The position numbers and the translations under genes are program-made. From a virus (Duplodnaviria > Caudoviricetes), in the IMG/VR virus record IMGVR_UViG_2883187667_000001, positions 1 to 64,000 of that record: a DNA stretch of 64,000 bases. One strand, written 5' to 3'. Below the pieces are notes generated by a model. The model was given only the letters and a program-made list of their open reading frames with translations. It was not told where the DNA came from and ran no database searches. Shown piece by piece: positions 34,873 through 46,802 of this stretch. The first letter of the stretch is position 1. Every line of letters starts with the position of its first letter.

Positions 34873-37800
34873 ATGTCACTATTAGAAAAGCTTTTCGGCG
34901 CAATCGCCACAAGAAGGAGCGCGCTTGATGCCGCCGCCCCGCCCTGCCCCGTCTTGGATGCCGTTACCAACCCAATTGAGCAACTGAAGCTGACCACCGA
35001 GCTGGGAAAAGTACGCAAGGAAATTGCTGGGCTGGGTGATTCGGCAATGGACGCCATGAAGCGCCTTGGGCTTACTACCCGGCTTGGCAAGATTCGCATG
35101 GAGCTGGGCGGACAACAGAATCAAGCTCTGGCTTTGGAGCCAGATACAGCGCCCCAGCAACCTGAACCAATTCAGGAAGCCCATGACGCCCCCGTGGAGA
35201 CCGTTCAATTCGGCCTGCAAGCAAGTGGCGTCAAGACCCGTGAAAAGATCAACGCGCAGGTGTCGGCCATAACCGACCAGATTCGCGCCGGCAGAAACCC
35301 TGCGACGCTGACCGACGATGAAATAGCGCTGCTCAAGCAATATTCCGGCAAGGGTGGGTTGACGATCAACTCCCAGCACGAGTATTACACCCCGCCCCAT
35401 GTTGCCGAAGGGGTGTGGGACGCGCTTAAAGCCAATGGCTTTGAAAATGGCAACGCTCTGGAACCGGCCACCGGCGCCGGTGTATTTCTGGCTACCAAGC
35501 CCAGCGGCGTCATTGCCACAGGTACCGAGATCGACCAGACCAGCGCCACTGTTGCGCAGATCTTGAACCCTGGGGACGTGGTATCTAACCAGTCATTCGA
35601 GTATCTGGCCGCGTCATCGCCCGATAACAGCTTTGACGCCGTGATCGGAAACGTACCCTTTGGCAACGCCCGAGGCCCGAGCGCGCACGATGACCCGCCC
35701 TACAAATCCGAAAAGCTGATCGAGCGCTATTTCGTGCAGCGCGTGATTGACAAGGTTAGGCCGGGCGGACTCATCTGCCTGGTTGTGCCGGTGAATATCA
35801 TTCAGGCAAAGGGCAAGGCTTGGGAGAAGTTTCGTATTGCCATCAGCAAGAAAGCCGAATTCCTGGGCGGTCACAAGCTGCCATCCAAGACGTTTTCGAA
35901 GCAAGGCACCGATGTCGTGGTCGACGTGCTGGTGATGCGCAAGCATGGCGCCGATTTTCTCGCGCAAGTGGATAACCTGCCGTTCGACACATTGACCGCG
36001 GCCAACGTGGTTTGGGCGGAGTTCATCGAGGGCCGCTACTGGCAAGGCGAAGGAAAGCGCTACATCAAGGGCGAGTTCGTACCCAAAGACCCGACCAAGT
36101 TCCGCGACTCGGACAAGGTTATCGCCGGCGAAAACATGACCGATGAGGCGCTAAAGCGCGCGCTTGCGGTTAAATTCCACTCTCGCATTGATTGGGAGAT
36201 GCTGGATAGCGCCGAACCGATTGTCCGCAACTACATAGACGGCGACCGCAAGGAGATCAATGGCATTGATTACGAAATGCAGGGCGGCGCGTGGGTAAAG
36301 ATAGCCTACACCGAAAGCAAAACCGAGCTGGATACGACTATTTACGGCGTTGACTCGTTGGACGCGCTGGAGTCCATCATGCAATCGGATTCCGGCATCC
36401 TGTCGTTGGGCTGGGGAAATATCGAAGCGGCATGCGATGCGTTTCCCAACCTCGTGCCGCAACATGTCAAGGACGCGCTAAATTTTTCTCGCTTGCAGTC
36501 GGATGACAACCAATGGCGGGCATTTCGCGGCGCGGTAATCGGCGCCAGGATCGAGTCGTACCTGAACAGCGGCAGCGATGACGCAAGTGATCTGGCCGAA
36601 CTGAAAGAATTGATCCTGCATGAGATCGTTAAATACGGACACCCCAACAGCGTTACCGGCCTGACCGTGGCCGGCAAGGAATCGAAGCGTTTAGGATTGT
36701 TCATCAACTCGGTGGATGAGGCGGGTAACTTCTCGCCGCTACTGGAAACCGGGACCATTCGCCAGGAAACAGCGGAATTTAATTCCGCCGATCCGGTATC
36801 GATCGTCACCTATCTGTTTGAGCAGAACCAGGACCCGGTAGAACTCAGTACGGTGCTGTCGATGTACGACGGAGAAGCCATGATGGAAGACCTGGGCGAC
36901 ATCACCAAAATACCGGGGCTGGCCGTGTCGCCCGATGGTTTCATCTACCCATTCGATCAATATTGCTCGGGCGATGTATTCCCCAAACTCCGGGCAATGC
37001 GCGAAGCGATGCTATCGGAGAAAGATCCGCGCATTATCGAGCAATACAAGCGCCAGATCGAAAGCATCGACGCCAAGCGCCGCAAAACGCCGACCGAAGA
37101 CATTACCTTCCGCATGAGGCAAAAGTGGTTCGATCAGAAAAACTACGTGATTGAATTCCTGCATGCCAATGGGTTTAAGGTTACGATTCAGTACGACGAA
37201 GAACGTGGTGAATTCGTTTCCCGGGGAACCGGTGGCGGACTGATACCGCAAATCGTCAATTACCTGAACGAAAAGCCGGTAATGGGCGGCGTCAAGGTCT
37301 CGGATTACAAGGACGCCATCAAGGCGCTGGAGGATCAATTCGACGCCTTCATGAAGTCGCACCCGAACAGCGAAGACCTGACCAATCAGTACAATGAAAA
37401 GTTTAACGGCTATGTCGATTTCAGCTACTCCTGTAGCGACCTGGGGCTGACCAATCTGGGCGACAGAATTAAGCCGCATACCTACCAGAATGAAGCCATT
37501 CGCCGACTGTCGCGTGAAGGAAAAGGGATTCTTGGTTTCGACGTGGGCCTGGGAAAAACCTTTACCTCCCTGGCGCTGCAAGCCTACAACGAGCAGATGG
37601 GGCGTTCCAAGCGCACCTGCATTGTTGTTCCTGACTCGGTGTTGGCAAACTGGTATCACGAACACAAGGCGTTCTATAAGGATACCTCACGCATGCTGGT
37701 TGTCGGCATGTCGCCGAAAACAAACAAGGATGGCACTGCGCAACGTGAGGCGATTGTCGACGAACAAGGCAATCCGAAGCTGCTCAACGGAGAACCCATA

Positions 37801-40800
37801 TACCAGGATGTCTTGACCAAGGACGACGCGGAAACCATCTGGGCGAAAATGCACAGCATTCCGCAGTCCGACTTGTCGCTGGTGATCATGTCGCATTCCC
37901 GCTTCGGCATGATACCGGTCAAGCAGCAGACCAAAAAGAAATACACCGAAGAAATGCTGTCGCGGGAGCTGATGAGCGCCGGGGATGCCGACAAGCTGAT
38001 GTCCGCAAATCCGGGCAAGCTGTCATATGCCGACGCGCAGAATCAAGACCGCATGGAGCAGAAATACTCCGACGAAGGCACGCGCAAACAGGACGCATAC
38101 CCGTATTTCGAGGACATGGGGTTTGATACCGTCATGCCCGATGAGGCGCATTTTTATAAAAACGCCTTCAAGCCGGGCAAGGAAGCGAGCCGCATCGCTT
38201 ATCTGCCAACGCCCGACCCATCGCAACGCGCCATCGACCTGTCGTTGAAACTGGCGCATATCCGCGAAATGAACGGCGGGCGCGGCGTTGTGTTGCTGAC
38301 GGCCACCCCGGTTACCAACAGCCCGCTTGAAATCTACAACATGTTGTCATTCCTGATTCCGGCAGAGGAATTCGAGCAGTTTGGCGTCTACACACCCGAT
38401 GATTTCGTGCGCGTGTTCGCCGATGTGCAACAGATCGAGAAGCTCAAGGTTTCCGGAGACGTGGGTAACGTCGACGCGATGGTCGGCTTCCAGAATCTGG
38501 ATGGCCTGCGTTCGCTGTTCCACAAGTACGCGATTATTAAAAATGCCGAGGACGTAAACCTTCCCCTCCCCGGCATCGAAGAAACCCAATCAACCGTTGA
38601 GCTATCCGAGGAACAGCAGGGTATCTATGTGGCGCTGCGCGCCGAGGCCAAGACGGCATCGTCTCCCAAGAAAGAGGAGCGTGAAACGGTACGACCGCTG
38701 TTCTCTATCATCCGCGACATGGACAGAACCACCACCGATCTGGACATGTATTACAAGCAGATCACCTTCATCTTCGCGCCCGCGCACAAGGAAGCGCTGG
38801 AAAAAGCGCTGGCGATGATGCCGAAAACGGTACAGCGCAAGGAGTACGACGCCGACAAGGAAAGAGATGTGGTCATGACGGTGCCGTTAGAGTACACGCT
38901 CACCGAAAAAGACGGCAAACTGGTGGTGGTCATGACCGACGCCGGCGAAGAGGACATGGTGGCCGCCATGCAGAAGGTCGGCATCCCGGAAGATGAAGTG
39001 GCGCACCCGATCACGCCAAAATATGCCGAACTGCTGAAGAACCTGAAAAAGGAACTGGATGTTGGCGGAAAGCAGCTAATTTTCATCGAGGAAAAAACCC
39101 AGCACCGGAAGCTGGCCCGGGTCATCGTGCATCACCTGCCCATTACGCTGGAGAACATCGGCATTATCAACGCCACGGATGCCTCCGGCGAAAAGCTACA
39201 GCGCATTTCAGACAGCTACAACGCCGGCAAGATCAAGATTGTTATCGCCAACAAGAAAGCGGAGGTCGGCGTCAACCTGCAAAAAGGCACGACGGCGATT
39301 CATCACCTGACGTTCCCCTGGGTTCCGGCCAGCATGCAGCAGCGCAATGGCCGCGGCGTCCGGCAAGGCAACACTGCGGCGACGGTCAATATCTACTACT
39401 ACATAGGGAAAGGATCGTTCGATCTGTTCCGCCTGAACCTGATCAATAAGAAAGGCAACTGGATTAACGATGTGCTGCGCGGCACCGAATCGAACATGGA
39501 ATCCAAGGGCGACGGCCACCTGTCGGCGGAGGATGTCATGGTGCTGCTGTCCGATAACCCGGAAGAGGCCAAGGCGCGCATGGAGGAAGCAAAAGCCAAG
39601 CGCGAAGCCGCAAAACGGGCTAAATCCGACAAAGCCATGGTCATCAACCTGAACCAGCTCATAGAGGCGCGGCGCAAACTCGCATTGCTGGATGGCTGGA
39701 AATCGGACGAAAAGACCAAGATAGAAGCGGAGCTGGCGAAACTGGCGGCGCGCATTGCCGCGCTTGAGGAAGATGATGGCGAGGAAGCCCGTAAAGACCG
39801 CTCCGATAGTAGGCGCAAGCAGTCCCTGCAGCAAAAAAAGCTCGATACCCTGGACGCCCGTTATCTGGCTATCGAGGAAAGCGCATCGGCGACAGTGAAA
39901 CAAAAAACCGTATTCCTGAAAGCCAAGGCGGCAGCAGGCGAACTACCCTTTGATGCGGGCGCTGTCGACAATCCGGAATCGGTGCTGGTTACCAACGATG
40001 GCCGGATAATAAAGCCGGGCATGGTGTTCGACATTAAAGACGCGAAGTACGACCGTGACCGCAAATTGACCAAAGGCCTAAATCTGGTTGAAGCCATTGA
40101 CGCATCGGCGCGCACCATCACCTTCAAGCCCAAGAGAGAAAATTACAGCTCGCGGCCCATCAGTCTGAACGATCTGCACAACTACGAGCTGAAGCCGGTA
40201 TCCATGACGATTGAGGAATGGGACTTGGCGAACAAACTCGCCAATAACCTAACGCTGAAGGATGTCATCGGGTTGGGGTTTGCCACCTACGACAAGTTCA
40301 AGGATCAAATCAAACTGGCCTATAGGGAATACTATATCGCCGATCTGGGGGACGGCACGGTAACACTGACCAGGGAAAGCTCCAGTTATCGTTCCCTGGT
40401 GGATGCCCGCTTCGTCTGGCCGGATGGCGGCAGCGAGGCCATTAAGCGCCAAGTGGTCAAGGATTACTACCGCAACATCACTGTTTATGGCACGGACTAC
40501 GGCGGCCCGATTATGGAAACCCTGTTCGGCGAGGATTGGAATGCCGCCATTCAGCAATATGCAGAAATGGCGACGCAGGAAGACGTGTTGCGTCAGGCGC
40601 AAGCCATTTTTGAGGCCGACGTTCAATCCAGGGGCATGGATGAATACCAGTTCATCGAGCGCAACAAGTGGTTCGTAGCCAATAATTGGCGCGAATATAC
40701 TGCAAAGATACCAGGCGACAATGTACAGGAGATAATGGATTGGGTGCGAACATTCATGGCGGACAAGATTGCGGCCTACGAAGCCGAGTCCCGGAGACGC

Positions 40801-41355
40801 CAGGACGAGGCCAACCAGAAAGCCGCCGAAGCGATTAAATCCAGCCCGGACTACAAAGAGATTCCAGAGGGTATTGCGCTAAAGCTCTCGGAAAAAGGCA
40901 TCACCGCCCTGTACAACACCGAATCGGTCTACATTAAGCGGAGCAATTGGCCGGCCTTCTCGCTGCTGCTGTTGCAGGACTCGAATGGCAAGCAAGGATT
41001 GCTGTACGCCGCCAAGGAGCGGCTGAAAAGCGCCTATGGCGCGCAATTCGCCGCCGATATATCGACAAAGTTCAGCGGCGCATGGTGGTATATGCCCTCC
41101 TCCCATAAGCTCGACGATATCGTTTCCGTTATACTCAACGATCAGGACGCGCCGGTGATCGAGACCAACAGGGACGCTCCGGAAAAGCTGAAAGTTCCTG
41201 CCGACAAAATAGCCGTTGGCGATGAACTGAATGGATTTGTCGTCCGATCGCTGGGTAAAACCTGGGCGGCTAAGGAATATGAAATCAGCGCCGTCAAGCG
41301 GGATTCGGGCTTCGATATCGAAGAAGGCGACTTGATCCAATACGCGAGATTTTAA
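34873..41355 (+). CDS. darB: DarB-like N6-methyltransferase + SNF2 helicase antirestriction protein
   Basis: EYYTP, LEPATGAG, GNVPF; DVGLGKT, DEAH, TATP, QRNGRGVRQGN. Confidence 0.9.
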   Translation: MSLLEKLFGAIATRRSALDAAAPPCPVLDAVTNPIEQLKLTTELGKVRKEIAGLGDSAMDAMKRLGLTTRLGKIRMELGGQQNQALALEPDTAPQQPEPIQEAHDAPVETVQFGLQASGVKTREKINAQVSAITDQIRAGRNPATLTDDEIALLKQYSGKGGLTINSQHEYYTPPHVAEGVWDALKANGFENGNALEPATGAGVFLATKPSGVIATGTEIDQTSATVAQILNPGDVVSNQSFEYLAASSPDNSFDAVIGNVPFGNARGPSAHDDPPYKSEKLIERYFVQRVIDKVRPGGLICLVVPVNIIQAKGKAWEKFRIAISKKAEFLGGHKLPSKTFSKQGTDVVVDVLVMRKHGADFLAQVDNLPFDTLTAANVVWAEFIEGRYWQGEGKRYIKGEFVPKDPTKFRDSDKVIAGENMTDEALKRALAVKFHSRIDWEMLDSAEPIVRNYIDGDRKEINGIDYEMQGGAWVKIAYTESKTELDTTIYGVDSLDALESIMQSDSGILSLGWGNIEAACDAFPNLVPQHVKDALNFSRLQSDDNQWRAFRGAVIGARIESYLNSGSDDASDLAELKELILHEIVKYGHPNSVTGLTVAGKESKRLGLFINSVDEAGNFSPLLETGTIRQETAEFNSADPVSIVTYLFEQNQDPVELSTVLSMYDGEAMMEDLGDITKIPGLAVSPDGFIYPFDQYCSGDVFPKLRAMREAMLSEKDPRIIEQYKRQIESIDAKRRKTPTEDITFRMRQKWFDQKNYVIEFLHANGFKVTIQYDEERGEFVSRGTGGGLIPQIVNYLNEKPVMGGVKVSDYKDAIKALEDQFDAFMKSHPNSEDLTNQYNEKFNGYVDFSYSCSDLGLTNLGDRIKPHTYQNEAIRRLSREGKGILGFDVGLGKTFTSLALQAYNEQMGRSKRTCIVVPDSVLANWYHEHKAFYKDTSRMLVVGMSPKTNKDGTAQREAIVDEQGNPKLLNGEPIYQDVLTKDDAETIWAKMHSIPQSDLSLVIMSHSRFGMIPVKQQTKKKYTEEMLSRELMSAGDADKLMSANPGKLSYADAQNQDRMEQKYSDEGTRKQDAYPYFEDMGFDTVMPDEAHFYKNAFKPGKEASRIAYLPTPDPSQRAIDLSLKLAHIREMNGGRGVVLLTATPVTNSPLEIYNMLSFLIPAEEFEQFGVYTPDDFVRVFADVQQIEKLKVSGDVGNVDAMVGFQNLDGLRSLFHKYAIIKNAEDVNLPLPGIEETQSTVELSEEQQGIYVALRAEAKTASSPKKEERETVRPLFSIIRDMDRTTTDLDMYYKQITFIFAPAHKEALEKALAMMPKTVQRKEYDADKERDVVMTVPLEYTLTEKDGKLVVVMTDAGEEDMVAAMQKVGIPEDEVAHPITPKYAELLKNLKKELDVGGKQLIFIEEKTQHRKLARVIVHHLPITLENIGIINATDASGEKLQRISDSYNAGKIKIVIANKKAEVGVNLQKGTTAIHHLTFPWVPASMQQRNGRGVRQGNTAATVNIYYYIGKGSFDLFRLNLINKKGNWINDVLRGTESNMESKGDGHLSAEDVMVLLSDNPEEAKARMEEAKAKREAAKRAKSDKAMVINLNQLIEARRKLALLDGWKSDEKTKIEAELAKLAARIAALEEDDGEEARKDRSDSRRKQSLQQKKLDTLDARYLAIEESASATVKQKTVFLKAKAAAGELPFDAGAVDNPESVLVTNDGRIIKPGMVFDIKDAKYDRDRKLTKGLNLVEAIDASARTITFKPKRENYSSRPISLNDLHNYELKPVSMTIEEWDLANKLANNLTLKDVIGLGFATYDKFKDQIKLAYREYYIADLGDGTVTLTRESSSYRSLVDARFVWPDGGSEAIKRQVVKDYYRNITVYGTDYGGPIMETLFGEDWNAAIQQYAEMATQEDVLRQAQAIFEADVQSRGMDEYQFIERNKWFVANNWREYTAKIPGDNVQEIMDWVRTFMADKIAAYEAESRRRQDEANQKAAEAIKSSPDYKEIPEGIALKLSEKGITALYNTESVYIKRSNWPAFSLLLLQDSNGKQGLLYAAKERLKSAYGAQFAADISTKFSGAWWYMPSSHKLDDIVSVILNDQDAPVIETNRDAPEKLKVPADKIAVGDELNGFVVRSLGKTWAAKEYEISAVKRDSGFDIEEGDLIQYARF

Positions 41356-41357
41356 GC

Positions 41358-41771
41358 ATGAGACTCTACAGCAAAGACGATTTACAAGACGCCCTGTTCG
41401 AAGCGCTGAACAGCAATAAAAGCTCGGCTGAGTTCGTCAAGAAATATGTCACCAATCTGGGCAAAATCATCAAGAAAAGGCCGCAGCATTACCGCTATTT
41501 CGGTCCGTACTGGTGGGCGCTGAAGTCGATCATGCTCAAGTACGAAGTACCCGGCATTGATGATTTTGTAGATCTGGAGTGGCTGGAAAAAATCAATCAG
41601 GCGCTGACCGGCGATGACTATGTCTGCGTGGCGTCCTGGGCCATGCAGGAAAGCCGGTTCGGCGGTCTGGAACTACCCACCAACACCGTGATGCTTGAAG
41701 ACGCCGAGGGCAATATGACCGAATGCGTCACCATAGACCCGTTTCTTGAGGCGCTGATTAAAAGCGGTTGA
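41358..41771 (+). CDS. ulx: Ulx-like DarB-packaging accessory protein
   Basis: Directly after darB; P..YRYFGPYWWALK resembles P1 Ulx. Confidence 0.7.
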   Translation: MRLYSKDDLQDALFEALNSNKSSAEFVKKYVTNLGKIIKKRPQHYRYFGPYWWALKSIMLKYEVPGIDDFVDLEWLEKINQALTGDDYVCVASWAMQESRFGGLELPTNTVMLEDAEGNMTECVTIDPFLEALIKSG

Positions 41772-41779
41772 TTTTGGAC

Positions 41780-42175
41780 TCACTTACCCATCGCTAAACG
41801 GGCGGCATCCGCCAGAAATCCACTCCGGGTAGAGTGATGGGCGCGGGCGTAATCGTCAATCTTCGCCAGCAGTCGGCGCGGCAGGGTGATATTAATTTTT
41901 TCGGAACGCCCATCGAAACGCGCGGTATCTACGTCGACCAAGGCCCATACGCCGCCCTCGAAGTCAGGGTTTAGCCTATGCTCGGCGATCGGTCGCGGAA
42001 CCGGAATTTCCTCATCGTCGTCGGTCATGCCTTCAAGGTGCAGGTCAATAGCTTCCGCCACACTGTTCAGGGCGTCGTCGAAGGTGTCGCCCGCCGAAAA
42101 ACATCCGGGAAGATCGGGAACGGTAACGCCAAAACGCACGCCGTCATCGGTATGCAATACCACGGGAAAGCGCAT
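41780..42175 (-). CDS. hicB: HicB antitoxin (RHH C-terminus)
   Basis: GVTVPDLPGCFSAGDT...EAIDLHLE; KINITLP...TRSGFL. Confidence 0.92.
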   Translation of the reverse strand: MRFPVVLHTDDGVRFGVTVPDLPGCFSAGDTFDDALNSVAEAIDLHLEGMTDDDEEIPVPRPIAEHRLNPDFEGGVWALVDVDTARFDGRSEKINITLPRRLLAKIDDYARAHHSTRSGFLADAARLAMGK

Positions 42176-42184
42176 AATAAACTC

Positions 42185-42385
42185 CTATTTCCACCCCGCC
42201 TGTTTCTCGATGCTGCGTAGCGCACCGGCAGGGATGTCGCTGTCAGGGTGCTTTACAGTCACCCGGCCCGGATTTGTCGGATGCTTGAATTGATGGTGCG
42301 AACCTCTGACTCTATCCAGATACCAGCCTTCCGACTCCAGGCGCTTGATGACTTGCTTGCTGTCCCTGGTGGTTATTATAACCAC
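42185..42385 (-). CDS. hicA: HicA toxin (start codon doubtful)
   Basis: VIKRLESEGW....RGSHHQFKHP...GRVTV.HP..DIP.G. Confidence 0.85.
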   Translation of the reverse strand: MVIITTRDSKQVIKRLESEGWYLDRVRGSHHQFKHPTNPGRVTVKHPDSDIPAGALRSIEKQAGWK

Positions 42386-42388
42386 CAG
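42366..42388. promoter_or_regulatory. hicAB operator palindrome overlapping -10
   Basis: CTGGTGGTTAT-T-ATAACCACCAG perfect inverted repeat containing minus-strand TATAAT. Confidence 0.7.
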
Positions 42389-42642
42389 TCAGTAATTGAC
42401 AATGTATTTGACAGGGACGCGGCTACCGGAAGATTACCACTGTCAACCTGTCAATTTTTACAGTTACGCCGATGCACGGCGCAGGGCTATAATGCCGGTG
42501 AGCAATCAGGAAACATAAGCCGTGCAGGGACAGCCGCTTCAACCGTTTACCGCAATAATCACAATAGCCGCCGATATGAGGCAAAGTTTTGCGTCATATA
42601 GGTGGGCGAATTTTTCGTTATGCCCCTTAGGGATTTGCACGA

Positions 42643-43491
42643 ATGCAAACTATAGATGAAGCCCTGATCGAAAAATTCAAACAAATCCTTTGTGAGCCCC
42701 CCTCCCCGGGACGCCAGAAGGAGCAGGTTGTACAGGACTTTCTTGAGCAACACACAGAGCTGATTCCGATTCCGAACCGCTTGAACCACCATCTCCATTT
42801 TCAATCTGTAGTGTCCAAGTTCCCACTTGGTACTGAACTGACTACAGACTACGTCTACATCACAAAAAGTTCTGACGTTTGGAGAGTAACCCTTGTCGAA
42901 TTGGAGTCTCCGGATAAGCGCATCTTTACCAGTGACGTTAAGAAAACGAATACTTCAGCAGAGTTCAATGCAGCGTTGAATCAGGTAAGAAGTTGGAAAC
43001 ACTACCTTGATGAAAACAAAGCCGAAGTAATTCGTCGCCTTGACCCGTTGCTACAACCAATAAACATGAGGCGGAACCCCATCGAGTTTCACTTCCAACT
43101 CATCATTGGCCGATCCGAAGACAAAAACCTAAGCGTGGAACGGAAGAAACACTTTAGAGGACTCATTGATGAAACTGGGATCGACCTTTTAACATTTGAC
43201 CAACTGATTGACTGGTACAGAAACGATCAGCGCTATAAGAAGCTTGTGCTGCGCCTCACGGGCGCGCAATACGCTTTCAAGCATATGCATTTCGAGCCGA
43301 CACAAATTCTTTCGTATGTGGGGCCTGACCGTCTATCCCTAAGCTCCGACGAGTTTGGGCGCTTAAAGGCTGCTGGATACGAAATGGACAAGTGGAGCAA
43401 GGGTGACTTGCTCACCTACAACGTCAAATTTGCAGAATCGACAAGAAACCAAGAGCTAAATAAAGGACGGCACTCTTTTTACTCTAAATAA
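42643..43491 (+). CDS. sduA: Shedu (SduA/DUF4263) anti-phage nuclease
   Basis: E...QDFLE, D, VELESP, A.NQV..W, LIIGR, LLTFDQL. Confidence 0.8.
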   Translation: MQTIDEALIEKFKQILCEPPSPGRQKEQVVQDFLEQHTELIPIPNRLNHHLHFQSVVSKFPLGTELTTDYVYITKSSDVWRVTLVELESPDKRIFTSDVKKTNTSAEFNAALNQVRSWKHYLDENKAEVIRRLDPLLQPINMRRNPIEFHFQLIIGRSEDKNLSVERKKHFRGLIDETGIDLLTFDQLIDWYRNDQRYKKLVLRLTGAQYAFKHMHFEPTQILSYVGPDRLSLSSDEFGRLKAAGYEMDKWSKGDLLTYNVKFAESTRNQELNKGRHSFYSK

Positions 43492-43532
43492 AGGTGTATA
43501 ATTTACTTTAGTCGCAACAGGCCATCATTCAA

Positions 43533-44315
43533 ATGAGCTGTTTAGCAATGAAGACCAAGGAAAGATCTATGTCTCACGATAATACAATCAAAAATTACAT
43601 GAAGTTTCTTTGGGGACCTCACTTAGCGGAGATTGTTTTTGAGTCGCCCAGCCGACAAGCAGTATCTAGCTCCGTTCAAAATGCTTCCGTAATTTCCGGG
43701 TTTAGTATTGCAGCTATAGCCATAATTTTGGCTACCACCCCTCTAACCTCACCTTTATTGATCACTCTTGTTTATTTATTTCTAGCATTAATGCTACTAT
43801 TTAAATGCGGCGATTGCTTGACCAATTCACTGCATTTTGATGACCCCATAACCAACCAGAAAGAACTAAAGTTTTATCGCAGGCAGGTTTACTGGGGATG
43901 GAGGCATTATAATCTGGCCATAATAATAATTATTGCATCGATAGCATTTTTTTCCATTATAAAAATACAAGACCAAAATATACCAAGCCACCTAAAGCTA
44001 TCCTTGTACACTGCAATTACCTTGGTTTTCGCATGGTGGGCATCATTTTGGTTTGTGGATTTATGGAAAACAATTATTTTCATTGTAAAATGTGAAGACA
44101 AGAATTACAGCAACTACTCGACAGAGCAAAAGAAGTTAATTGAGCGCAATATTCTTTTCAAGTTAATCTTGTATTCCGGTATAACTGTAACTTTAACTAT
44201 ATTATTAACTCTTTTGCCTTTTGGTTTTTTTTCTTCATGTGTAGATGTGCAGGCATTATTAATTACATTGATATTGTTTGCAGTCCTTCGAGCGATAGTA
44301 ATAGATACATTTTGA
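43533..44315 (+). CDS. AT-rich multi-pass membrane protein (~6 TM); start may be 43569
   Basis: Six hydrophobic stretches; much lower GC than flanks. Confidence 0.75.
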   Translation: MSCLAMKTKERSMSHDNTIKNYMKFLWGPHLAEIVFESPSRQAVSSSVQNASVISGFSIAAIAIILATTPLTSPLLITLVYLFLALMLLFKCGDCLTNSLHFDDPITNQKELKFYRRQVYWGWRHYNLAIIIIIASIAFFSIIKIQDQNIPSHLKLSLYTAITLVFAWWASFWFVDLWKTIIFIVKCEDKNYSNYSTEQKKLIERNILFKLILYSGITVTLTILLTLLPFGFFSSCVDVQALLITLILFAVLRAIVIDTF

Positions 44316-44434
44316 CCAGTCACTATGCTTGAGAGATTTATGATCTACGCTGGATTCTGCCTTGTTTTCTGTCTTGGATTAACAAAAAAAGCACCCACTT
44401 CGGCGCTAGACTCAGTCTCGTTTGTTGTGCCACG

Positions 44435-44521
44435 GCCTAACGAAGCGTTCGAAGCGGACGCGCTTGACGATCAGCCTACTTACCACAGTTTTTGCGCGTA
44501 CCGCTCAACTTTGCGTTGGTC
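44435..44521 (+). other. Integron attC site 1
   Basis: R'' GCCTAAC; inner boxes GTTCGAAGCGGACGCGC / GCGCGTACCGCTCAAC with extrahelical bases; R' GTTGGTC. Confidence 0.75.
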
Positions 44522-44544
44522 ATCTTGATACTGAGGCGCGAACG

Positions 44545-45036
44545 ATGAGCGAATTTGATACGCGGAAGAAGGCTCTACTAGAACCATTATTCATCGAAGC
44601 TGGCAACGCATTGATGGATTGCCAGACTTTCGAGTACGGCCTAACGCTTCTGCTCTTTCATCTTGCCAGACTCGATAGCATAACTCTCGACCCTCAAAAG
44701 GTTGCTCTAATTTTGGAGAACCAAGACAAGAAAACGGCAGGCCAGCTAATTGCCATGCTGAAGAAAAAGGCCAACGTAAGCGACGGTATCGAAAAAGCCT
44801 TGGAAGTTGCTCTCGCTTCACGCAACACACTTATCCATCGCATATTGATAGACAACGCAGAGAAACTTCCCCAAGCAGAAACGAGGGCATCGCTGCTTAA
44901 GGAAATTCGAAGCCTGCGCGCTAATGTTCAAAAGGCAGACAAGAAGTTGCGCCCGTTCATCCACGCATTTGGTCTCGAACTCGATGGCTTTGACAATCGC
45001 CAATTCGAAGCCGAAGCAAAGGCAACGTTTACGTGA
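44545..45036 (+). CDS. HEPN-like putative RNase (cassette gene)
   Basis: All-helical 163 aa; Q.FE and RNTLIH (Rx4H) motifs; flanked by attC sites. Confidence 0.65.
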   Translation: MSEFDTRKKALLEPLFIEAGNALMDCQTFEYGLTLLLFHLARLDSITLDPQKVALILENQDKKTAGQLIAMLKKKANVSDGIEKALEVALASRNTLIHRILIDNAEKLPQAETRASLLKEIRSLRANVQKADKKLRPFIHAFGLELDGFDNRQFEAEAKATFT

Positions 45037-45043
45037 ACCCGAT

Positions 45044-45109
45044 GCCCAACCCTTCAGTCGAGAGGGGCTGCGCAAAAGCGCGCAGCCCCTCACTTTTACG
45101 TTGTTGGGC
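45044..45109 (+). other. Integron attC site 2
   Basis: GCCCAAC...GTCGAGAGGGGCTGCGC-AAAAGC-GCGCAGCCCCTCAC...GTTGGGC. Confidence 0.85.
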
Positions 45110-45112
45110 ATC

Positions 45113-46039
45113 ATGATGAGGATCGTGCCATTTATTCTTGGCTTGGCGCTAGATATTGCACTCAAGCGCCTGACGCGGCCGCATACGGTCTACTCGAAGC
45201 TTGCGATAACAGCACTGCTCATCAGTGGCGGAGCCTTCATCACCCCATTTTGGCAACAAGCCGTTGAAGGTCTCATTGCGCCCTTGGACAATCCAGGATG
45301 CACCGGCCCACTTCCATCTATCGCATCAGGTTCGATTTTTCTCTTGTTATCCTTTTTGTTTGGATCTATATCGCAAAGGCATTCAACGCAACAACGGGAA
45401 TCACTTGTAGACACAAAATCGCTCAGTGGTCCTATCTCAATTGGGCAGGCGCAAGTTTATTGCTACTGCGGGTCGGTATTGGCAATGTCAAACATTGATG
45501 TGGTCATTACCTCAGAGAATAGAGATCTACATCTTGGAAGTATTAACGGCACTTCTGTTTCAGGAAGAATTAGGCGACTTGCCGCTTCATATAACAGCGA
45601 TGGAACACTAAGCGCCGACCATCTGCTTAATCACACCATCCAATGGAAATCGAATCAGCATCACAAGGGACCATACAGATTGGGGCAATGCATAGTCTCT
45701 CCCCCATTTAATGCCAAACGTCGCGGCATCAAATCCATAGTTCATGCAATCACACTTGAAAAACGTGACTCAGGATTAAATATCGTAGAGGAATCTGCGA
45801 ACCGAGAAGTAATCGATTTTGTTATCAAACATTGCAACGTACAACAGTATTCTTCCTTTTTTCTACCAATATTTGGACTCGGTAGTGGTGGCCTATCTCG
45901 AGATGATGCGATCTCCAGAACATTAACCCCTCTCATTGCCAAGCTTCGTACCACGGCTGCGCCCCTTTCTGTTTATGTGGGAACCTATCGTCTCTCTGAT
46001 GCAGCAATTGCTTCGACATTTTTGCTGAGAGCGCAATGA
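45113..46039 (+). CDS. 2TM + Macro-domain protein (cassette gene)
   Basis: Two N-terminal hydrophobic helices; Macro motifs IDVVITSEN, SVSGRI, GIKSIVHA, FLPIFGLGSGG. Confidence 0.75.
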   Translation: MMRIVPFILGLALDIALKRLTRPHTVYSKLAITALLISGGAFITPFWQQAVEGLIAPLDNPGCTGPLPSIASGSIFLLLSFLFGSISQRHSTQQRESLVDTKSLSGPISIGQAQVYCYCGSVLAMSNIDVVITSENRDLHLGSINGTSVSGRIRRLAASYNSDGTLSADHLLNHTIQWKSNQHHKGPYRLGQCIVSPPFNAKRRGIKSIVHAITLEKRDSGLNIVEESANREVIDFVIKHCNVQQYSSFFLPIFGLGSGGLSRDDAISRTLTPLIAKLRTTAAPLSVYVGTYRLSDAAIASTFLLRAQ

Positions 46040-46530
46040 CCCCCCATCTCGCAGAGGATGTTGCATCGCTCTTATGTCGGCTAGATGAGCGCAGGACAGG
46101 AGCAATTATAGGTTACACAAGCGGAGTCTTTGATCTTTTTCATCAAGGGCATCTCAACTATCTAAACGCATGCAAACTGGCTGTGGATGTATTGGTTGTC
46201 GGTGTAGACGCCGATATCTTGGTTCGGATTAGAAAGGGCAGTCATCGTGCTTACGAAAAATGCAACACAAGGGTCGCCCATGTACAAGAGACAGGCCTTG
46301 TAGACGAGTTATTTATCAAGACGAATTCCTCCGACGAGATAATTCCCATCATTCGACCGCATAGATACTTTATTCCAAGCAACCGCCAAATCAGCGCTCT
46401 GCGATCCCAACTTCTAAACGACTTATCAGTACGACTTGATGTGCTTCCTTATACAAGTGGGGTATCTACAACGAAAATGGCACGGCTAATTGGAATTTCT
46501 TCGGATAGCAGTGACTTTGAAAATAAGTGA
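46036..46530 (+). CDS. HxGH cytidylyl/adenylyltransferase (TagD/HldE-domain-II-like)
   Basis: GYTSGVFDLFHQGHLNYL, LVVGVDAD, YTSGVSTT; ATGA-coupled to Macro gene. Confidence 0.9.
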   Translation: MTPHLAEDVASLLCRLDERRTGAIIGYTSGVFDLFHQGHLNYLNACKLAVDVLVVGVDADILVRIRKGSHRAYEKCNTRVAHVQETGLVDELFIKTNSSDEIIPIIRPHRYFIPSNRQISALRSQLLNDLSVRLDVLPYTSGVSTTKMARLIGISSDSSDFENK

Positions 46531-46541
46531 ATTCGATCGAT

Positions 46542-46590
46542 GCCCAACCCATCATTCCACCGGACTTGCGCGAAAAACCACGCATGAAGC
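46542..46590 (+). other. Truncated attC site 3
   Basis: GCCCAAC-CCATCATTCCACCGGACTTGCGCGAAAAACCACGCA left half present, right half missing. Confidence 0.65.
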
Positions 46591-46632
46591 CCAATATCAT
46601 CGCCACCTGACAAGCTTATCGCTAACTCAACT

Positions 46633-46659
46633 TAAGCCCGCCCCACGCGGGCTTTTTTG
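46633..46659 (+). terminator. Intrinsic terminator closing the cargo island
   Basis: AAGCCCGC-CCCAC-GCGGGCTT followed by T run. Confidence 0.75.
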
Positions 46660-46703
46660 CGCCCGCAAAAAATAACCACCCCGCACCCCGCCCCCACCAA
46701 AAC

Positions 46704-46744
46704 CGGAAAACAGCGCAAAAACCGCCCTACCCTCACCCAAAACT
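46704..46744 (+). promoter_or_regulatory. Late promoter motif (before capsid)
   Basis: CGGAAAACAGCGCAAAAACCGCCCTACC...CAAAACT, near-identical to copy at 55370. Confidence 0.75.
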
Positions 46745-46802
46745 ATCACCTGAACCTCGGCGCGTCGCCGAACACAGTCTGATAACTTTTGGCGAGATCG
46801 AT

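Follow-up and report, generated by a model that had tools for sequence, protein, structure and literature searches.

The 64,000-nucleotide (nt) stretch of viral DNA analysed here (Duplodnaviria; Caudoviricetes; positions 1 to 64,000 of IMG/VR record IMGVR_UViG_2883187667_000001; hereafter the window) contains an integron cassette that pairs two genes: one encodes a Macro-domain protein with two predicted transmembrane (TM) helices (2TM-Macro), the other a nucleotidyltransferase of the HxGH fold class. This module is real, conserved and mobile; its effector architecture is known, and its transferase partner is unprecedented. We read it tentatively, with confidence somewhat short of even, as a mobile two-gene conflict module, most likely for abortive-infection phage defence, in which a ligand-gated membrane effector would respond to a nucleotide ligand under the control of the transferase. 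Here, we describe the two proteins and their relatives, the cassette in which they travel and the explanations that compete for them, and compare the module with known defence systems.

The gene pair and its products

The 2TM-Macro gene runs on the plus strand from the ATG at 45113 to the TGA at 46039 (308 amino acids, aa), and is followed on the same strand by the transferase gene (ATG at 46036 to TGA at 46530; 164 aa; PF01467). The stop of the first gene overlaps the start of the second in an ATGA at 46036–46039, and both the open reading frame (ORF) map and the sequence agree with the original prediction of two ATGA-coupled genes. Both genes are intact, because their homologues have matching lengths (307–312 aa for the Macro protein and 157–163 aa for the transferase).

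The 2TM-Macro protein begins with an amphipathic helix, continues with two hydrophobic segments at approximately residues 30–47 and 66–86 (hydropathy) and ends in a Macro domain that occupies approximately residues 100–308. Five Lys or Arg residues precede the helices, none lies in the connecting loop and three follow, a distribution that places the Macro domain, by prediction, in the cytoplasm. The Pfam profile PF01661 matches the window's protein at E 0.085 (13.3 bits, below the gathering cut-off of 22) and matches 23 of the 24 family members at E≤1, the best at 3.3e-8, while a profile of the family run against Protein Data Bank (PDB) sequences returns eight matches, all of them Macro domains. 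The AlphaFold model has a mean pLDDT (the predicted score in a local distance difference test) of 84.5, rising above 90 over residues 100–308, and Foldseek relates it to OiMacroD, YmdB and Af1521, which are of the MacroD type (E ~1e-10, target TM-score ~0.8). Two N-terminal TM helices joined to a Macro domain, as first proposed, are thus borne out by hydropathy, profiles and structure prediction.

Two ligand loops, G146-T-S-V-S-G-R152-x-R154 and P252-x-F-G-x-G-S-G259, are invariant in 24 sequences. In MacroD enzymes, the catalytic Asp and His lie in a GGGVDGAIH loop; by our own reading of the alignment, the corresponding positions are S150 and R154. The Macro domain appears, then, to be without MacroD-type hydrolytic residues, which fits binding over hydrolysis.

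The partner is matched by PF01467 at E 1.4e-7 (32.3 bits, cut-off 21) and carries HxGH, KG..RP and S-T-T catalytic motifs. Residues H36, G38, H39, K67, R71, S144 and T146 are invariant in 17 sequences, and the enzyme is very likely active because HxGH, K67, R71 and S-T-T are among these constant features. The earlier description of a TagD/HldE-II-like HxGH nucleotidyltransferase is therefore sound, on the Pfam match above the cut-off and the invariant HxGH and S-T-T motifs. TIGR02199 (rfaE_dom_II, HldE domain II) matches at 2.6e-17 with 63 bits against an equivalog cut-off of 181.5, and TIGR01518 (TagD) reaches 30.2 bits against one of 165.4. The best solved relative is 5x9q (E 4.8e-27), titled 'putative cytidylyltransferase' in the PDB, which we take to be Burkholderia HldC; its KGGDY-type segment is replaced in the window's transferase, as judged from the alignment. 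Among characterised enzymes, the nearest are heptose-1-phosphate adenylyltransferase, which is the closest, and the ethanolamine-phosphate and glycerol-3-phosphate cytidylyltransferases. At E≤0.1, PADLOC gives no match for the Macro protein and, for the transferase, just two at chance level (PDC-M31B 0.012, REase_MTase_IIG 0.024).

Conservation, relatives and the integron cassette

The 2TM-Macro family is rare, with 45 of 1.84 billion representative proteins matching its profile at E≤1e-30. Loci from 12 genome records, one viral record and 19 metagenome records (32 in all) were examined. Synteny was one of the checks suggested with the original prediction, and the two genes do co-occur: among the 31 assessable loci, which span Beta-, Gamma- and Alphaproteobacteria as well as metagenomes, 30 have the transferase as the next gene downstream, in the same orientation. 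The named records include Hydrogenophaga, Albidiferax, Pseudomonas, Stutzerimonas, Methylophilus, Pseudoalteromonas, Colwellia, Azospirillum and Sinirhodobacter. The one miss is a Methylophilus locus (L004), where a different small ORF follows the Macro gene; L027 could not be assessed, its contig stopping 75 nt past the Macro gene.

Over 24 loci, the pairwise identities of the Macro protein rise and fall with those of the transferase (Mantel r 0.85, a value reached by none of 2000 permutations), in a test that is inflated by the relatedness of the loci. Because only the four best-scoring of 63 viral loci with related transferases have a Macro gene, the other 59 being without it, the Macro partner is, on sequence comparison, a dedicated transferase subfamily. 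Around the module, the loci examined share no further gene, and in the window's clade the cassette boundaries fit just the Macro and transferase genes. Elsewhere, the neighbours include type I and type II restriction enzymes, Pycsar, Uzume, PDC-S21, PDC-S26 and mads, together with integrases, resolvases and transposases (150 of 181 ORFs scanned in 20 loci, the ORFs of L032, L037, L038 and L043 being left out). Homologous HNH_2 endonuclease genes of approximately 300 aa adjoin the module in two genomes that are unrelated, Methylophilus (L004, 6064–6984) and Sinirhodobacter (L010, 8381–9259).

Relatives of the module fall into two clades. In a sister clade, whose Macro proteins are at most 46% identical to the window's, a third gene of approximately 190 aa stands at every assessable flank: in eight of eight cases among the first 13 loci, in six of six assessable metagenome loci, and in L042–L044 besides (L005–L010, L012, L013, L030, L031, L035–L038 and L042–L044). 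This gene is usually divergent and immediately upstream, and lies downstream in L030. Its product combines an invariant H-G-T with a W-x-G-x-G-x-Y-F-F motif, a conserved and very basic segment (RRD..KKRKDIRLDD) and a Glu that does not vary; the H-Y-E residues H13, Y43 and E161 are invariant. Pfam gives weak PARP matches in all five proteins tested, the best fold matches of the confident model (pLDDT 84.9) are to PARP1, PARP2 and exotoxin A (E ~3e-4, query TM-score 0.44–0.50), and PADLOC PD-T4-9_A matches at 8e-7 (L005) and 3.6e-3 (L009). By these profile and fold matches, the third gene encodes a divergent PARP/CmdT-like ADP-ribosyltransferase. PD-T4-9 has been renamed CmdTAC, with the CmdT homologue first in the operon (PMC9519451), and subunit A is therefore taken as CmdT, which is described as an mRNA ADP-ribosyltransferase in PMC11618068. 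In the 15 loci of the window's clade (identity of 49% or more), 10 of which extend 1.8 kb or further upstream, the third gene is never seen, and the genome that holds the window has no homologue of the sister-clade enzyme. In one sister-clade viral contig (L044, 2882–4991), the 2TM-Macro gene is split by an insert of approximately 1 kb into two ORFs, with the ADP-ribosyltransferase and transferase genes intact.

The Macro subfamily as a whole counts 470 representatives, and its more distant members (second tier, E 1e-20 to 1e-9) carry the same Macro type C-terminal to other domains. Over 98 of these proteins, the other domains are NUDIX (8), TIR_2 (7), CAP12-PCTIR_TIR (2), and SIR2_2, PNP_UDP_1, EAD2 and an alpha/beta hydrolase (one each); the tally covers 98 of the 103 rows P0119–P0221, leaving out P0122, P0123, P0124, P0134 and P0136, which have 67–231 aa. 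Such company, of the type that cleaves nicotinamide adenine dinucleotide (NAD) or acts as an effector, is what would be expected of a Macro domain that senses an ADP-ribose-derived ligand. The TIR-, SIR2-, PNP- and Nudix-Macro fusions, found among P0120, P0121, P0130, P0147, P0168, P0181 and P0207, may represent further undescribed effector or processing proteins. On pSCL4 of Streptomyces clavuligerus (L108, 5956–11421), same-strand genes encode a Macro protein, a hypothetical protein, a RES NAD+ phosphorylase and a CHAT protein; a caspase-family gene adjoins, and the transferase is absent there. This row looks like a candidate NAD-derived signalling system in its own right.

These relatives also bear on the nature of the ligand. 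In the window's protein, the GD(I) motif reads GSV and the NAAN motif reads TSEN, as originally stated; both readings were reproduced, and rest on a low-scoring HMMER stretch against TTHA0132 together with the family alignment. A signal that is possibly not adenine-based had been proposed from them, and this is weakly founded: in ten second-tier sequences, by our reading, the residue after the conserved Gly of GD(I) is D, S, N or P, and because the position varies in the subfamily the Ser is weak evidence for a non-adenine base.

The cassette begins within the attC of the preceding (HEPN-like) cassette, at 45044–45109 on the plus strand. The R'' (GCCCAAC) and R' (GTTGGGC) of this site are part of an inverted repeat, perfect over 10 bp (GATGCCCAAC / GTTGGGCATC), that flanks a hairpin rich in guanine and cytosine (G+C). 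R' lies at 45103–45109, the G|TT crossover at 45104 is the cassette start, and the Macro gene begins 4 nt past R'. The start first proposed for the cassette, 45104, is thus the exact crossover point, while the proposed end, 46548, is not a cassette end. The site is the only one of its kind in the genome at the stringency applied, aligns with the attC beside the genome's own intI, and contains a hairpin (45062–45091) that also scores as terminator-like.

At the other end lies a remnant of the cassette's own attC (46538 to approximately 46585, plus strand), which retains R'', L'' and part of the central stem and has lost L' and R'. A direct repeat, CGATGCCCAACCC, occurs at position 45040 and again at 46538. 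The remnant aligns with the intact attC 3' of the same cassette in L024, L001 and L002 until approximately 46585 and then diverges, and no GTTRRRY-like R' site occurs within 125 nt of the transferase stop codon. Here the cassette's own attC has lost its 3' arm, and the cassette is fixed where it lies. Relatives retain complete sites: the same two genes are followed by an intact attC in L001, L002, L024 and L028 and by different attC sites in L003 and L025, the last being a row of short same-strand ORFs, as in cassette arrays. A scripted search finds an attC directly after the transferase gene in 6 of 12 loci of the window's clade, and a convincing one in none of eight sister-clade loci; by eye, L011 and L026 have a near-consensus attC after the transferase gene.

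The genome has an integron integrase (TIGR02249, 495 bits against a cut-off of 265) at G000:C1:3623502–3624446, 1.27 Mb from the window. A closely similar attC adjoins this intI; the window's array has no adjacent intI. Because the cassette starts at an attC, relatives have an intact attC after the pair and the genome contains a genuine intI, the Macro and transferase genes are a two-gene integron cassette. A chromosomal integron array of the same attC type was considered; the strict patterns used gave just one perfect site and one related site beside intI, in a search that may miss weaker sites.

A proposed mechanism and its alternatives

In the mechanism proposed here, the 2TM-Macro protein would be the effector, its cytoplasmic Macro domain binding an ADP-ribose-like nucleotide. 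Binding would cluster the membrane hairpins and lead to membrane damage, as for the TM-Macro form of ThsA, while the co-translated HldC-like transferase would set the level of the ligand. In the favoured version, the transferase would join a nucleoside triphosphate (NTP) to a ribose or sugar phosphate that is available or abundant just during infection, and the activator would be made without any NAD-cleaving enzyme. The ligand gating, the membrane killing, the substrates of the transferase and the trigger are inferred. A ligand-gated membrane effector is suggested because the ligand loops are invariant, the MacroD residues are apparently lost, relatives form effector-like fusions and the protein has a membrane hairpin. 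The transferase, always coupled and catalytically intact, would have to act on the Macro ligand, and synthesis of the activator is favoured because in the window's clade the cassette encodes no other enzyme. The window as a whole, moreover, is devoid of genes for envelope synthesis.

The more specific proposal that the HxGH transferase is a new class of immune signal synthase, which on infection would combine an NTP with a ribose- or sugar-phosphate into a product that opens the 2TM-Macro effector, we regard as credible and yet doubtful. Candidate reactions would be the conversion of ribose-5-phosphate to ADP-ribose without NAD, or of ADP-ribose-1''-phosphate to a dinucleotide with a pyrophosphate bridge; a base other than adenine may be involved. 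In the three-gene relatives, the CmdT-like ADP-ribosyltransferase could be a second arm or a supplier of the acceptor.

Several observations count against defence by a transferase-made signal. No sensor is visible in the transferase, which consists of a catalytic domain alone, and the mechanistic analogy with ThsA is one of architecture alone, because no kinship is found at the profile level. An ADP-ribosyltransferase is present in addition to the transferase in 14 of 14 assessable sister-clade loci; it follows that the transferase does not simply take the place of an enzyme that makes a signal by cleaving NAD, and in that clade it cannot be the sole nucleotide enzyme, so its role there may differ (resetting, scavenging or substrate-making). 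The tally of neighbouring genes counts families, not ORFs, and so gives no figure for defence enrichment. Expression is uncertain as well, because no sigma-70-like promoter is found upstream of the cassette on its strand in this genome and the attC hairpin upstream is terminator-like, and the cassette's own attC is truncated; the cassette may be silent in this lysogen.

The main rival is a logic like that of toxin–antitoxin pairs, which we consider somewhat unlikely. It is made plausible by the sister clade, where an NAD-using enzyme could supply the ligand and would leave the transferase a resetting role. Here, the 2TM-Macro protein would be a membrane toxin, and the transferase would remove, mask or convert the activating nucleotide, or make an inhibitory one. 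The activator, for example ADP-ribose or ADP-ribose-1''-phosphate, would come from NAD cleavage by a phage, by other defences or by the sister-clade ADP-ribosyltransferase, and the toxin would fire when infection or loss of the cassette lowered transferase activity. Integron toxin–antitoxin cassettes are usually tightly overlapping two-gene operons, as the pair is in its single cassette; the Macro relatives are tied to NAD-cleaving TIR, SIR2 and RES enzymes and not to transferases; and a presumed HicAB pair lies 3 kb away. HxGH enzymes, however, favour synthesis of nucleoside diphosphate (NDP) compounds, NDP-X, in cells, because pyrophosphate is removed, and neither protein has a visible antitoxin-like DNA-binding domain or proteolysis tag. 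The order of the genes, effector first and enzyme second, says nothing for or against this logic.

The strict adjacency of ADP-ribosyltransferase and Macro genes in the sister clade, and the resemblance of its enzyme to the mRNA-modifying toxin CmdT, would also suit a reversal or immunity function of the DarTG or PARG type. The anchored Macro domain would then strip ADP-ribose from a target and the transferase would recycle the product, the modifier being the module's own ADP-ribosyltransferase in the sister clade and, for the window's clade, a toxin from a phage or a competitor; macrodomain-type hydrolases do act as immunity proteins (PMC11833690). This is improbable: by our reading other residues take the place of the catalytic Asp and His of MacroD enzymes, the ADP-ribosyltransferase gene is divergent and not co-transcribed as in DarTG, neither the membrane anchoring nor the transferase is given a role, and the window's clade keeps the pair without an ADP-ribosyltransferase gene in the genome. 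Least probable of all, and by our estimate very improbable, is a part in envelope or small-molecule metabolism (lysogenic conversion), in which an NDP-sugar or NDP-alcohol such as ADP-heptose or CDP-glycerol would be used or sensed and the cell surface, for instance a phage receptor, altered. The nearest characterised relatives of the transferase do make such compounds, and phages carry such enzymes, as in the 59 viral loci with related transferases and no Macro gene. Yet the transferase is far below the equivalog cut-offs (63 against 181.5 and 30 against 165 bits), the pair has no conserved companion among envelope genes (glycosyltransferase, phosphotransferase, flippase or other), Macro domains are not known to act as transferases, and the Macro domain here is predicted to be cytoplasmic. 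The latter two explanations fit the data less well than either a signal synthase or a toxin–antitoxin-like pair.

If the module does defend against phages, Macro-domain membrane effectors would be in use outside Thoeris and would be able to couple to HldC/TagD-like HxGH transferases, and NDP-sugar- or ADP-ribose-type signals would be possible without NAD cleavage. With two genes in 1.4 kb, the module is a small, self-contained cassette, and its natural two- and three-gene forms allow the models to be separated with few constructs.

Prophage surroundings and comparison with known systems

The cassette array is in a P1-like prophage. An integron-type array extends over 44434–46585 (context 41358–46800), between a Ulx-like gene and the major capsid gene, and the stretch is low in G+C (0.34–0.50, against 0.54–0.62 in the flanks). 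Upstream of the array, 34873–41771 encodes a 2160-aa DarB-like methyltransferase-helicase and the Ulx-like anti-restriction protein; on the downstream side come the gene for the major capsid protein (53.8% identity to Xanthomonas phage Rb1) and one for a tail sheath. Integron cassettes have been reported as stores of defence systems (PMC13434031), and their presence, together with Shedu, inside a P1-like prophage links two mobile stores of defence genes. The window pair has no near DNA match in the phage collection searched, and neither protein has a match among plasmid proteins.

Of the neighbours named in the original prediction, Shedu is confirmed: SduA is encoded on the plus strand at 42643–43491 (PADLOC SduA 5.2e-90; Pfam SduA_C 6.7e-24). 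It is followed after 41 nt by a gene for a 260-aa multi-pass membrane protein with no family match (43533–44315, plus strand), no attC intervening, and the two may be one unit. The HEPN assignment is less secure. The gene immediately upstream of the cassette (44545–45036, plus strand; 163 aa) is of unconfirmed identity, its product having no Pfam, PADLOC, NCBIfam or PHROG match and structural comparison pointing just weakly to the HepT-like and DUF4145 families; an attC-like site seen by eye at 44434–44522 would make it a separate cassette. Two genes of HicA and HicB size, presumably HicAB, lie on the minus strand at 41780–42385 behind a near-consensus promoter (42402–42375). The absence of cell-wall or lipopolysaccharide genes nearby holds, none being found between positions 41 and 51 kb of the window. 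Elsewhere in the genome, five near-identical tyrosine-recombinase-like copies (G000:C1 2095327–2096147, 2105056–2105876, 2399411–2400231, 2509613–2510433 and 3222533–3223353), each with its match to the integron-integrase model broken by a TAA, are probably a repeated mobile element.

PADLOC 2.0.0, consulted for the novelty of the pair as the original prediction suggested, has no model for either gene. No description of the Macro/transferase pairing was found in the literature, where the supplementary tables of large defence-prediction or integron-cassette studies could list it, and no report was found of the HxGH fold class in immune signalling. To our knowledge, HldC/TagD-like HxGH transferases have so far been known just from envelope and cofactor synthesis.

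The closest parallel is type II Thoeris, and the likeness first drawn to its TM-Macro effector is real at the level of architecture. ThsA of this type likewise has a two-helix N-terminal membrane hairpin and a cytoplasmic Macro domain in approximately 280–310 aa, and both systems are two-gene modules in defence or mobile contexts; the nearest language-model clusters are ThsA_Macro (PF20016), with scores of 0.93, 0.89 and 0.83. According to PMC11204291 and PMC13434031, binding of a nucleotide makes the Macro domains of ThsA oligomerise, after which the TM domains cause membrane damage. The differences are nonetheless considerable. PADLOC finds no ThsA match for the window family, whereas a genuine ThsA scores 4e-124; PF20016 matches 0 of 24 family members, and the hhalign probability is 1.1%. 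On these three results, a diverged member of the ThsA Macro family was rejected. D83 of EcThsA contacts adenine N6 (PMC11204291), and the window's protein has Ser there. The partner also differs, being an HxGH transferase here and the TIR protein ThsB in Thoeris: in a genuine type II locus compared, ThsB lies directly upstream of a 278-aa 2TM-Macro ThsA, while the window's genome has one TIR_2 match, 565 kb away, no ThsB_TIR match, and neither within the two-gene cassette.

The transferase shares its fold family and its HxGH, KG..RP and S-T-T motifs with HldC, HldE domain II and TagD, but the window subfamily is far below their equivalog cut-offs and, in the loci examined, is never found with heptose or teichoic-acid genes, just with 2TM-Macro. 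CmdTAC and DarTG share with the sister clade an ADP-ribosyltransferase, which, as in DarTG, adjoins a Macro protein. The sister clade differs from CmdTAC in that neither the SecB-like chaperone nor CmdA is seen among its conserved genes, and from both systems in its divergent gene arrangement, in the membrane anchor of its Macro protein and in having a transferase as well. The window's clade has no ADP-ribosyltransferase at all, and Pfam and PADLOC scans of the window genes find no DarT. CBASS and Pycsar systems with 2TM effectors, finally, follow the same logic, in which a small nucleotide enzyme is paired with a two-helix effector bearing a nucleotide-binding domain; in place of their CD-NTase or pyrimidine cyclase, neither of which gives a PADLOC match here, the module has its HxGH transferase, and its putative sensor is the Macro domain.

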